Shown one piece after another: positions 37,491-39,728 of a DNA stretch of 64,000 nt. Within the stretch, counting starts at the first letter, position 1, and each line of letters begins with the position of its first letter. A program made the translations under genes and the position numbers. The stretch spans positions 384,001-448,000 of the forward strand of contig CAVSUE010000001.1 in the NCBI GenBank assembly GCA_963731265.1, given 5' to 3'. The DNA is from an uncultured Verrucomicrobiae bacterium (GTDB lineage Bacteria; Chlamydiota; Chlamydiia; Chlamydiales; Rhabdochlamydiaceae). The notes beneath the pieces were generated by a model. The model saw only the letters and a list, made by a program, of their open reading frames with translations, searched no databases and had not been told where the DNA came from.

Positions 37491-39728
37491 ATGGAGCCAG
37501 TTGCAAAACTCCACCCCAGCGAAAAATCGAGGATTTTGGCGATTTCTGGCCAGGACCTGCATGCAGGTCCGGCCGGCGGTGGCGAAGACATATTTGGGAA
37601 AGTAGAAAAGCCGCCGCCGGGGCAAGGCGCGCCAAAAGAACGATTTTCCGCGGCGAAGAGTTTTGCAACTGGCTCACCGGTCTATCAAGAGCTCGAAGTC
37701 ATCGAAGATGCCCAAATCAATGGCAAAGAGAAATGTCTTAAAGTTCTTGAAGCCATGTACTGGACCCGTTTTGCCGATGAGAAAATGCAAAAGCTCATCC
37801 GCCAAAATAAAGGTGGCACTTTTCATCTTTGCGTCTCCGGCCATGAAATGACCGGCGCCGTCTGCGCGCTTTCCTTGACGCCTGGAAAAGATTGGGGCCT
37901 GCCCTATTACCGCGACCGCGCTTTTGCCATTGGGATCGGCTGTTCGCTTCGAGATATCATCGGCGCATGCCTCTCCCGCGCCGTCCCTCATCATTCCGGG
38001 GGCAGAATGATGCCGGAACATTTCACGCACAAAGGATTGCGGATCCCTTGCCAATCGAGCTGCGTCGGGTCGCAATTTCTACACGCTGTCGGTGTGGCCA
38101 AAGGGATCCAGCTTGCGGGCAAGGACGAGGTTGTCTATGTCTCTGCTGGAGACGGAGCTACTTCGCAAGGCGATTTCCATGAAGCGCTCAATTTTGCCTG
38201 CCTCCATTCTTTAAGTGTTATCTTCGTCATTCAGGACAACGGCTGGGCGATCTCGGTTCCGGTCAGAGATCAAACCGCAGGCGGGACGATCGTCAAATTG
38301 GCGCAAGGCTATGAAGGGCTGTCTGTCTTTGATGTCGACGGTTGCAATTACGAAGAGATTTCCAAAGCGATGTCGGCAGCTGTCGTCAAGGGTCGCGCAA
38401 AAGAAGGGCCAAGCCTGATCGTCGCCAAAGTGCCGCGCATCGGGGCTCATAGCAGCAGCGACGACCCCTCCAAATACAAAGAAAAAGGCTGCATCGAAGA
38501 AGAGAAAGCAAGAGACCCGATTCCCCGTTTTGAGTCCTGGTTGTTGGATATGGGGCTTATCTCTTTAGAAGAACTTGAAAGAATGAAAGAGCGTTGTTTG
38601 CATCAAGTGGAGTCTGCCTCTTTGGAAGCGGAACAGATTCCCTTCCCTGAAAAAGGAACGGCCACTAAAGGGGTCTTCAAAGACGTCGACGTTTCTCAAT
38701 TCACTCCTTTTTCTGAAGAGGATTCTCCTTCTGCGACCGATAGCATCGTCATGATGGACGCGTTAAACCACGCCTTGGACGAAGAGATGAAGCGCGACCC
38801 TCAAGTTATCGTGTTCGGCCAGGATGTCGCTCATGGAAAAGGCGGAGTCTTTGGCATCACGCGTCATTTGACAGAGAAACACGGTGTGGAGCGCTGTTTC
38901 AATTCGCCTCTCGCCGAATCGAGCATCATCGGAATCGCGATGGGTATGTCGATGGCGGGCTGCAAGCCTGTGGCAGAAATTCAGTTTGCCGATTACATGT
39001 GGACGGGCGTCAATCAGCTCTTCAATGAACTCGCCAGCCTCTATTACCGCGCCAACGGCGAGTGGCATTGCCCCGTCGTACTACGCATGCCTTACGGAGG
39101 CTATATTCAAGGTGGCCCATACCATTCGCAGAGCATCGAAGCATTCTTAGCCCACGCCCCGGGCCTTAAAGTCGTTGTCCCGAGCAATGCGGCCGATGCG
39201 AAACGCCTCCTCAAAGCTGCGATACGCGATCCCAATCCTGTTATTTTTCTGGAACACAAAGCCCTTTACCGCCAGCGCGTTTTTTGTGCCCGGAAAGAGC
39301 CAAAAGACAACGAACTTCAACCGTTCGGAAAGGCGAAAGTCATCCGCAGTGGGGATGATATCACCTTGGTTTGCTGGGGAATGATGGTCTTCATGGCCTC
39401 GCAAGTCGCCGATACTCTTGCCAAAGAAGGCATTTCTGTGGAAGTGATCGATCTGCGCACGATTGTGCCTCTCGATATGCCGACTGTGCTGGAGTCGGTG
39501 CGCAAAACAGGTAAAGTCCTCGTTGCGCACGAAGCGGCGCGAACATGTGGTTTTGGCGCAGAAATTTCCGCCCGGATCGTTGAAGAAGCCTTCCAATACC
39601 TAGATGCCCCCGTGCAACGCGTCACTGGCAAAGATTGTCCCGTCCCTTACTGCAAAGATCTCGAAGATGAGGTCTTGCCCCAGATCAAAGATTTAGAAAA
39701 AGGAATCCGCGACCTCGTCAGTTTTTAA
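37491..39728 (+). CDS. Fused E1 alpha/beta subunit of a branched-chain 2-oxoacid dehydrogenase
   Basis: PYYRD, TPP motif GDGATSQGDFHEALN...N, HSSSDD, EIQFADY and HSQS motifs; GAGG RBS before ATG 37491. Confidence 0.93.
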   Translation: MEPVAKLHPSEKSRILAISGQDLHAGPAGGGEDIFGKVEKPPPGQGAPKERFSAAKSFATGSPVYQELEVIEDAQINGKEKCLKVLEAMYWTRFADEKMQKLIRQNKGGTFHLCVSGHEMTGAVCALSLTPGKDWGLPYYRDRAFAIGIGCSLRDIIGACLSRAVPHHSGGRMMPEHFTHKGLRIPCQSSCVGSQFLHAVGVAKGIQLAGKDEVVYVSAGDGATSQGDFHEALNFACLHSLSVIFVIQDNGWAISVPVRDQTAGGTIVKLAQGYEGLSVFDVDGCNYEEISKAMSAAVVKGRAKEGPSLIVAKVPRIGAHSSSDDPSKYKEKGCIEEEKARDPIPRFESWLLDMGLISLEELERMKERCLHQVESASLEAEQIPFPEKGTATKGVFKDVDVSQFTPFSEEDSPSATDSIVMMDALNHALDEEMKRDPQVIVFGQDVAHGKGGVFGITRHLTEKHGVERCFNSPLAESSIIGIAMGMSMAGCKPVAEIQFADYMWTGVNQLFNELASLYYRANGEWHCPVVLRMPYGGYIQGGPYHSQSIEAFLAHAPGLKVVVPSNAADAKRLLKAAIRDPNPVIFLEHKALYRQRVFCARKEPKDNELQPFGKAKVIRSGDDITLVCWGMMVFMASQVADTLAKEGISVEVIDLRTIVPLDMPTVLESVRKTGKVLVAHEAARTCGFGAEISARIVEEAFQYLDAPVQRVTGKDCPVPYCKDLEDEVLPQIKDLEKGIRDLVSF
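37494..37675. repeat. 182-bp palindromic element in frame at the 5' end of the E1 gene
   Basis: Perfect 18-bp terminal inverted repeat GAGCCAGTTGCAAAACTC plus nested internal stems. Confidence 0.85.

Follow-up and report, generated by a model that had tools for sequence, protein, structure and literature searches.

A transposon-type miniature inverted-repeat element with IS1182-like ends, probably read in frame at the start of an E1 dehydrogenase gene of a Rhabdochlamydiaceae-type bacterium

The window analysed here, a stretch of 64,000 nt from contig CAVSUE010000001.1 of a Rhabdochlamydiaceae-type chlamydia, contains a gene specifying a fused E1 alpha/beta 2-oxoacid dehydrogenase, the start codon of which is followed, from the very next base, by a 182-nt palindromic element (Table 1; all positions are those of the window). 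Pfam recognised three domains in the E1 protein, E1_dh (residues 88-386), Transket_pyr (419-594) and Transketolase_C (613-733), and its solved structural relatives in the PDB are E1 subunits of 2-oxoisovalerate and pyruvate dehydrogenases; the initial annotation, made from the letters alone, had rightly taken the host to be a core metabolic enzyme. The ribosome-binding site that it had reported ahead of the ATG corresponds to GAGGGG, and the TGA stop codon of the upstream UPF0158 gene (37482-37484) lies 6 nt ahead of the E1 start codon. Upstream of the element, both the ribosome-binding site and the ATG are preserved; the open reading frame (ORF) is uninterrupted, and the remainder of the gene is intact and conserved. 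The explanation that we consider probable is that a transposable element of the miniature inverted-repeat type (MITE) with ends of the IS1182 family was inserted between codons 1 and 2 of the E1 gene, that the frame was kept, and that the gene is read from its original ATG.

Table 1. Positions of the element, its flanks and the neighbouring coding sequences in the window
Feature	Position	Strand	Basis
MITE, 182 nt; frame 0 reads EPVAKLHPSEKSRILAISGQDLHAGPAGGGEDIFGKVEKPPPGQGAPKERFSAAKSFATG(S)	37494..37675	+	Repeat search, fold, frame analysis
Left terminal inverted repeat, GAGCCAGTTGCAAAACTC	37494..37511	+	Same 18-mer in at least 119 loci elsewhere
Right terminal inverted repeat, perfect complement of the left	37658..37675	-	Repeat search
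Central 18-nt perfect palindrome, GGACCTGCATGCAGGTCC, tip of one hairpin branch	37553..37570	.	Repeat search and fold
Left flank CATG, presumed target 4-mer, containing the start ATG (37491-37493)	37490..37493	+	Sequence; 4-bp duplications of the family
ACCG at the expected site of the right CATG duplicate (1/4 bases match)	37676..37679	+	Sequence
Gene (745 aa) of the fused E1 alpha/beta dehydrogenase for 2-oxoacids (2-oxoisovalerate/pyruvate type), intact apart from the element	37491..39728	+	Pfam, homologues
Shine-Dalgarno-like GAGGGG, 2 nt 5′ of the ATG	37483..37488	+	Read from sequence
Upstream gene, UPF0158 family, 378 aa	36348..37484	+	Pfam PF03682, E = 7.7e-77; ORF list
Next in-frame ATG (M89), sole canonical alternative start, at the edge of Pfam E1_dh	37755..37757	+	Sequence, ORF list, Pfam

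When the window was searched with the terminal 18-mer at up to three mismatches, two matches were obtained, both of them arms of the element, while shuffled sequences gave 0.08. The arms are perfect complements and can be extended to 32 nt at 81% complementarity. A 182-bp element with perfect 18-bp inverted repeats directly behind the E1 ATG had been claimed initially, and it is indeed present with two exact arms; the left arm had been placed correctly, while the true right arm lies one base to the left of where it had been drawn. The internal palindrome, also described then, is perfect and made up of two 9-nt halves (GGACCTGCA/TGCAGGTCC). As RNA, the element was predicted to fold at -102.6 kcal/mol, compared with a mean of -61.3 (standard deviation 4.5) for 200 dinucleotide shuffles (z = -9.25), none of which folded as stably. 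In the predicted fold of the E1 mRNA the AUG is unpaired and a perfect 18-bp stem begins at +4, in agreement with the large hairpin that had been proposed at the initiation site. Besides the coding frame, a further plus-strand frame and an antisense frame had been reported as open; the real number is larger, five of the six frames being free of stops. Five or more open frames never arose in 20,000 mononucleotide shuffles, and among 20,000 shuffles that kept a perfect palindrome, 18 had all six open. In the subfamily of the window copy, the frame beginning GAG CCA GTT contains no stop and always reads EPVAKL...SFATGS. The first 61 residues consist of A, R, G, Q, S, P, E and K in 74% of positions (51% in the remainder of the protein), a composition that suggests a disordered N-terminal segment. 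At gathering thresholds, the sole Rfam match in the window was a tRNA (46842-46915), none falling at the element, and scans of 36000-38200 returned no promoter-like site and two terminator-like sites that were not above chance.

Comparison with E1 orthologues revealed the empty site. Homologues detected at E ≤ 0.001 numbered 6080; the best 120 of these, which were examined, are 573-706 aa long, cover 77-92% of the query and all lack the insert, their N-termini being of the form M-x-YQ(E/D)LE and similar. The database protein P0168 is identical to the window E1 protein, and the 90%-identity cluster of the best match, labelled Rhabdochlamydiaceae bacterium, includes it along with P0159 and P0160. 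These last two (683 aa) are devoid of the insert and start with MVYQELEVIEDAE (MVYQELEV); on an E1 tree computed without the N-termini they form the sister group of the window protein (SH-aLRT 98). Past residue 63, P0159 and the window protein are identical at 655 of 682 positions (96%), including 24 of the first 25, and the window protein is longer by exactly 62 codons. This excess indicates that the native start was ATG GTC TAT (MVY...) and that the insertion amounts to 186 nt (37494-37679), which places it between codons 1 and 2. Excision does recover a native start, as had been suggested at the outset, but 186 nt rather than 183 have to be removed, and the result is MVYQELEV, not MPVYQELEV. 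The alignment of E1 N-termini, proposed at the same time as a check, thus points to an insertion.

Scanning species-representative genomes with the 18-mer yielded at least 119 loci (designated L), among which the genome of the window is not included; the family counts given below refer to the matches listed. According to their labels, 47 of the 119 listed loci belong to Chlamydiota (Rhabdochlamydiaceae, Parachlamydiales, Simkaniaceae and unclassified), 19 to Rhodothermota, 11 to Verrucomicrobiota, 9 to Pseudomonadota, 6 to Lentisphaerota, 5 to Armatimonadota and fewer to other groups, with none labelled Rickettsia. Accepting a second arm at up to four mismatches, and after dropping one nested duplicate, 71 elements with paired ends were obtained, including the window copy. 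Fifty-seven of them are short (36-353 nt, window copy included), with length classes near 54, 73, 100, 166/167, 179-185, 232 and 248 nt; at least 56 short copies thus reside in other genomes, up to nine per genome. The search for further copies envisaged initially was therefore productive, as many were found, both in coding and in non-coding DNA. Perfect 4-bp direct repeats, generally A+T-rich, flank 42 of the 71 pairs (31/57 short, 11/14 long), while only 1/71 matched when the right 4-mer was shifted 10 nt outward as a control. The subfamily of the window element comprises L108, L032, L025, L043 and L118. The copy at L108 is 80.8% identical to it over all 182 nt and has a perfect duplication (ACAG), and those at L032 and L025 are 84-93% identical over parts of their length. 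An extended version of the window element, taking in the flanking ATG and ACC and having GGTC as its duplication, was considered and rejected, since these flanks are not inverted repeats and L108 has the same ends as the 182-nt element together with a perfect duplication. The remaining 49 of the 119 loci contain one exact 18-mer with no partner within four mismatches, and their neighbours are ordinary genes rather than transposases (presumably tgt, mutY, a serine dehydratase and a response regulator, judging by eye from the translations). These single-end loci may include both copies that have decayed and matches due to chance; of the latter we estimate that about 17 would be expected in 596 Gb.

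The ends of the family are shared with an autonomous insertion sequence (IS). Thirteen full copies of 1602/1603 nt were found, all in one Rhodothermales genome, with one end matching the window repeat at 18/18 positions and the other at 15/18 or 16/18; a 1599-nt 'pair' at L076 proved false, ordinary genes lying between its arms. The protein encoded by the full copies is 376 aa long and contains the domains DDE_Tnp_1 and DUF772. Its best NCBIfam model was transpos_IS1182, at 94.7 bits, below the cut-off of 270 and for a protein from another phylum than the window. In tblastn, 99% of its length aligned at 52% identity with a plasmid protein that bears the annotation IS1182-family transposase; its identity to the ISUnCu17 transposase was 44.6%. 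The ends of ISUnCu17 (present in L121) match the window repeat at 14/18 and 15/18 bases, and those of a Comamonas element at 13/18 on both sides. Beyond the ends, nothing detectable is common to the window element and the full 1.6-kb elements. The window element is short, lacks a transposase, is bounded by terminal inverted repeats, has dispersed copies elsewhere and shares its ends with an autonomous IS; it is a transposon-type MITE with an IS1182-type end, which adds to what the initial annotation had said of it.

The full copies (L004, L006, L018, L019, L022, L026-L028, L039, L056, L059, L061 and L078, on OZ219799/OZ219800) represent at least 13 near-identical IS1182-type elements in a closed Rhodothermales genome, with proteins 97-100% identical, which indicates that the element was recently active there. 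The same 18-nt end was also seen in Fimbriimonadales (L016, L020, L046, L051, L089), Verrucomicrobiaceae (L012, L072, L094) and Zetaproteobacteria (L011, L037), which have MITE length classes of their own (100, 232 and 161 nt). This distribution suggests that one IS lineage repeatedly seeded MITEs in several phyla.

Relatives of the element are read in frame within their host ORF in the window E1 gene, in at least 13 loci and in at least nine database proteins. Three loci have internal in-frame insertions: L007, where a class-V aminotransferase domain (Aminotran_5) is split; L015, in a thiamine pyrophosphate enzyme; and L114, in an ORF without family assignment. At the start-proximal loci the insertion lies 1-11 codons past the start codon. 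The insert separates MKN from the signal-peptide core of a TIG/PKD/beta-propeller protein at L032, and MKK from the lipoprotein signal of a solute-binding protein at L025; other hosts are an isochorismatase-family protein (L043), BioY (L103) and an epimerase (L010), and further cases are L074, L100 and L102. L079, L092 and L095 were also considered as read-through cases and, having no usable upstream start or long downstream frame, were treated as 5′-leader insertions. A profile built from five insert peptides and searched against 1.84 billion representative proteins gave 31 proteins at E ≤ 0.001, many of which are short, possibly spurious ORFs. Among the 31, the insert follows MTR in an rRNA adenine dimethylase (RrnaAD/KsgA-type; P0121) and MQF in a short-chain dehydrogenase (SDR; P0122), and occurs in a TPS-domain protein (P0125), internally in a thioesterase (P0132) and at the C-terminal side of YbeY (P0133). 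A peptide search of the longer proteins in the 90%-cluster database, the reach of which is limited by its word index, returned a sole match from 38 candidates. This protein, P0170, is an amino-acid permease; its insert lies internally, is 61 aa long and is identical to that of the window at 47 of 61 positions. The empty-site orthologue and these in-frame relatives in other genes support the earlier suggestion of a chlamydial in-frame repeat analogous to those of Rickettsia.

Some other E1 orthologues have an N-terminal insert as well. In P0165, MMA is followed by 61 aa and then DQELE; the ends of the insert have decayed to EPIEKL...SFSIGS, and 38 of its 61 residues coincide with those of the window. 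P0162 and P0167 have 17 aa between MI and YQELEV. These two proteins are identical but for two C-terminal-proximal differences, after which P0162 (715 aa) has an unrelated tail of 30 residues, probably a frameshift or contig-end artefact. On the tree, P0158 and P0159/P0160 lie between the insert-bearing lineages and have no insert. The presence of an N-terminal insert in three E1 lineages of one clade could be taken to mean that this E1 lineage had an N-terminal domain of 61-62 residues from its ancestor onwards, the palindrome being coincidental. That explanation has next to no chance of being right and can be regarded as refuted: the sisters P0159 and P0160 and the best 120 of the 6080 homologues lack the insert, the junction falls after M, MI or MMA depending on the lineage, the window peptide is closer to the permease insert (47/61) than to that of the E1 orthologue (38/61), and the same DNA with the same ends is found in unrelated genes and in intergenic DNA, flanked by target duplications. 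Since the junctions differ, the sister site is empty and the window insert most resembles that of the permease, at least two independent insertions at the E1 5′ end seem more likely than a single ancestral one.

To analyse where the family inserts, each short element plus 4 nt was removed in silico and the ORF spanning the junction was identified. The 30 elements with long flanks were compared with 9000 random positions in the same loci. Counting ORFs that continue for 250 nt or more downstream, 14 of the 30 lie between -60 and +35 nt of an ORF's first start codon, where 5.7% of random positions fall (p = 2e-10); five lie at ORF ends (random, 5.4%; p = 0.02) and one deep inside an ORF (random, 82%; p = 9e-21). 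At eight loci (L003, L016, L036, L051, L052, L068, L088 and L115) the insertion junction abuts an upstream stop codon exactly (0 or -1 nt), which fits targets such as TTTA or CTTA overlapping TAA. Length plus 4 is divisible by 3 in 31 of the 57 short elements overall. Among copies situated 2-32 nt behind a start codon this was so in 15 of 16, and among copies hand-classed as 5′-untranslated (12) or stop-proximal (16) in 11 of 28 (Fisher p = 0.0004; 13 short elements were left unclassed). Under a fixed rule the frame was kept in 19 of 25 'coding' copies, compared with 12 of 32 others (p = 0.007). In our reading, the family inserts at A+T-rich gene boundaries, and coding copies are retained only when the frame is kept. 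Such selective retention implies that translation runs through these copies, and for the E1 gene we infer that the 62-residue extension is translated.

For the E1 locus, the sequence of events would be as follows. A non-autonomous MITE with 18-nt ends of the IS1182 family would have entered the E1 gene of a Rhabdochlamydiaceae-type chlamydia at an empty site expected to read ...GGGGTCATGGTCTAT, CATG being the target. The immediate product would be ATG-element-C-ATG-GTC, with two in-frame ATGs. The frame survives because 182 + 4 = 186 nt, or 62 codons, and because the subfamily has no stop in that frame. E1 would then be translated from its original ATG with a predicted N-terminal extension of 62 residues (including, for example, the peptide ILAISGQDLHAGPAGGGEDIFGK), rich in Gly, Pro, Ala, Lys and Ser and probably disordered. 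The mRNA would form a hairpin of roughly -100 kcal/mol from +4, to be melted by ribosomes; that the ribosome terminating 6 nt upstream, at the UPF0158 gene, might help to open it is speculation. The element would be selfish DNA and not a designed protein module. A copy corresponding to the early state is found at L095 (positions 23-204, Rhabdochlamydia sp. JOPF242), where 182 nt are flanked as aaaATG-element-cATGggc: the duplicated target provides an ATG on both sides, as expected of the window copy just after insertion. The downstream frame at L095 closes after eight codons. In the window, the codon in place of the duplicated ATG is CCG (Pro63). Translational bypass over the hairpin from one duplicated ATG to the other was dropped for the window copy, since its second ATG is now CCG.

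Initiation at the original ATG had to be weighed against a downstream start, in which the element would act as a 5′ leader and either M89 (37755) or some non-canonical codon would be the start of E1, the openness of the frame being a by-product of a subfamily poor in stops. No methionine lies between residue 1 and M89, in accordance with the initial statement that no further in-frame ATG precedes MYWTRF. A product starting at M89 would retain the whole Pfam E1_dh domain, which begins at residue 88, and the 657-aa homologue P0033 is annotated from the equivalent Met; it would, however, lose residues 63-88, which include the GKEKCLKxLEAMYWTRF block common to 42 aligned orthologues. Alignments with the solved homologues begin at window residues 72-86, that is, before M89, and residues 63-88 are as conserved as the remainder (24/25 compared with 655/682, against P0159). 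A hairpin at +4 should impede initiation at 37491, but no Shine-Dalgarno-like sequence precedes 37755. Many copies of the subfamily are intrinsically open in frame 0, so that openness needs no selection, and several start-proximal relatives contain stops; yet the preservation of the frame in 15/16 copies behind starts, as opposed to 11/28 of those hand-classed elsewhere, would be unexpected if the upstream ATG were irrelevant. On balance we regard a downstream start as unlikely. In solved E1 alpha homologues, 35-80 residues precede the point that aligns with window residues 72-86, which makes extra N-terminal length plausible on the E1 fold.

It could also be that a recent insertion silenced or crippled E1, through occlusion by the hairpin or cleavage by RNase III, and that the gene is an early, undecayed pseudogene. 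Such an event would agree with the perfect state of the terminal repeats, with the empty site of the nearest orthologue and with the very stable hairpin that adjoins the AUG directly. Against it, neither a frameshift nor a stop interrupts the 682 residues past the insert, which match the orthologue at 96% identity, the altered target duplication argues against a very recent insertion, and in-frame inserts are kept at almost the same position in two other E1 orthologues, the clearly decayed ends of one of them (EPIEKL...SFSIGS) implying long-term retention of a working frame. Silencing of E1 therefore appears improbable, even more so than a downstream start.

An E1 gene read from its original ATG through the MITE thus remains the preferred explanation, and several observations weigh against it. 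The window copy lacks an intact target duplication, its flanks being CATG and ACCG (1/4 bases in common), and we cannot reconcile three changes in four flanking nucleotides, next to 36 nt of perfect repeats, with simple neutral ageing; the ACCG might, for instance, stem from an imprecise insertion and a later change that restored the frame. Initiation should be impeded by a perfect 18-bp stem at +4. Not all relatives are read through, the start-proximal copies at L011, L023, L053 and L112 containing in-frame stops or no open frame. The starts used in the statistics on position and frame were assigned crudely, as the first ATG, GTG or TTG after a stop and without a gene finder. Neither the 18-mer search nor blastn-short found a second copy of the element in the window, and tblastn with the family transposase gave no match in the window or in any listed chlamydial locus.

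A bolder proposal, for which we see a small chance, is that this is a start-site-seeking chlamydial MITE that prefers the ribosome-binding and first-codon region and acts as a heritable initiation switch and a source of N-terminal extensions. The 4-bp duplication could then copy the ATG, as in the flanks of L095, to give two starts bridged by a hairpin, and the stop-free, frame-keeping design would enable both the switch and the new extensions. If true, the lifestyle of the Rickettsia palindromic elements (RPEs) would have been invented a second time, independently, in intracellular bacteria, in this case with an identifiable transposase lineage that has crossed phyla.

Other repeats were noted in the window. 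A 17-nt exact match to MITE positions 24-40 (50856-50872; blastn-short, E = 5.5e-4) sits in the C-terminal part of a 499-aa minus-strand ORF, has no inverted ends and is either chance or a remnant. A second MITE-like element of 176 nt (28191-28366; TAGGGGTCCTTGACAAAAATTC...), with 35-nt inverted ends that are 91% complementary, is situated where two convergent genes end, in the gap separating them, and has an inner hairpin at 28252-28294. The stems of this hairpin are identical to those of a perfect 19+19-nt intergenic hairpin at 43155-43197 (TCGCAAGTTGATCCGTATT), and the two are a separate small repeat family. Between two divergent ORFs there is a palindromic element of 96 nt (53612-53707; AGGCTGTTGTCGAATTAAGC...), the 35-nt arms of which are 80% complementary. 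Upstream of the UPF0158 gene, an ORF of 809 aa (33802-36231) matched no Pfam family at E ≤ 0.001; short repeats of N/G/S/T/I abound in its C-terminal half.

The closest known parallel is that of the RPEs, which the relevant passages of a MITE review describe as short palindromic repeats inserted in frame in protein genes (PMC10969869). In both cases an obligate intracellular bacterium carries short palindromic repeats in frame in unrelated housekeeping genes, a peptide being added and the gene kept, with many copies in coding sequence and several stop-free frames. The likeness rests on behaviour as described, no RPE sequence having been compared. The chlamydial element differs in its 18-nt inverted repeats, its 4-bp duplication and its IS1182-type autonomous partner, none of which, to our knowledge, has been described for RPEs; its copies concentrate at gene starts and ends and not throughout proteins, and its host phylum is Chlamydiota, with the same element ends in several other phyla. 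With ISUnCu17-like members of the IS1182 family it shares the end sequence, and the transposase of the 1602-nt Rhodothermales element has the 52% identity to an annotated IS1182-family transposase given above; the window element differs in being 182 nt long and devoid of a transposase. Another obligate intracellular bacterium, Coxiella burnetii, has the MITE family QMITE1, the copies of which often overlap annotated ORFs. According to the abstract and a section heading of its description, the copies are 300-400 bp long, with 2-3-nt direct repeats and sigma-70 promoters, and encode basic peptides; the host belongs to another phylum, and the abstract reports no start-codon-proximal bias or frame length filter (PMC5896051). 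Intragenic ERIC and BOX elements and Anabaena MITEs are small ORF-carrying repeats sometimes fused in frame with genes, but belong to other families and hosts, and their fusions are, in the review's account of them, occasional rather than recurrent (PMC10969869). No description of MITEs in Chlamydiota, this family included, was found in our searches of the literature outside subscription journals and supplements: MITEs or palindromes are not mentioned in the text available from a Rhabdochlamydiaceae genomics paper (PMC9723776) or from the Waddlia genome paper (PMC2878342), nor are Chlamydiae or IS1182 in that available from the MITE review (PMC10969869). The element is RPE-like in behaviour and, in anatomy, a classical MITE with an IS1182-type end.

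An outcome known mostly from Rickettsia, selfish DNA in frame in essential genes, would thereby be extended to Chlamydiota with a clear mechanism: an IS1182-type MITE, a 4-bp duplication and length classes of 3n+2, by which the frame is kept. The rule is measurable, as copies gather at gene starts and, inside coding sequence, only frame-keeping lengths survive; start-proximal clustering and the 3n+2 length filter are what most deserves to be followed. The family would offer a testable system for bacterial tolerance of large hairpins and extra peptides at initiation sites, and its insertions could be used as markers for Rhabdochlamydiaceae lineages. For annotation, it serves as a warning that N-terminal extensions of proteins from chlamydial metagenome-assembled genomes may be transposon-derived.

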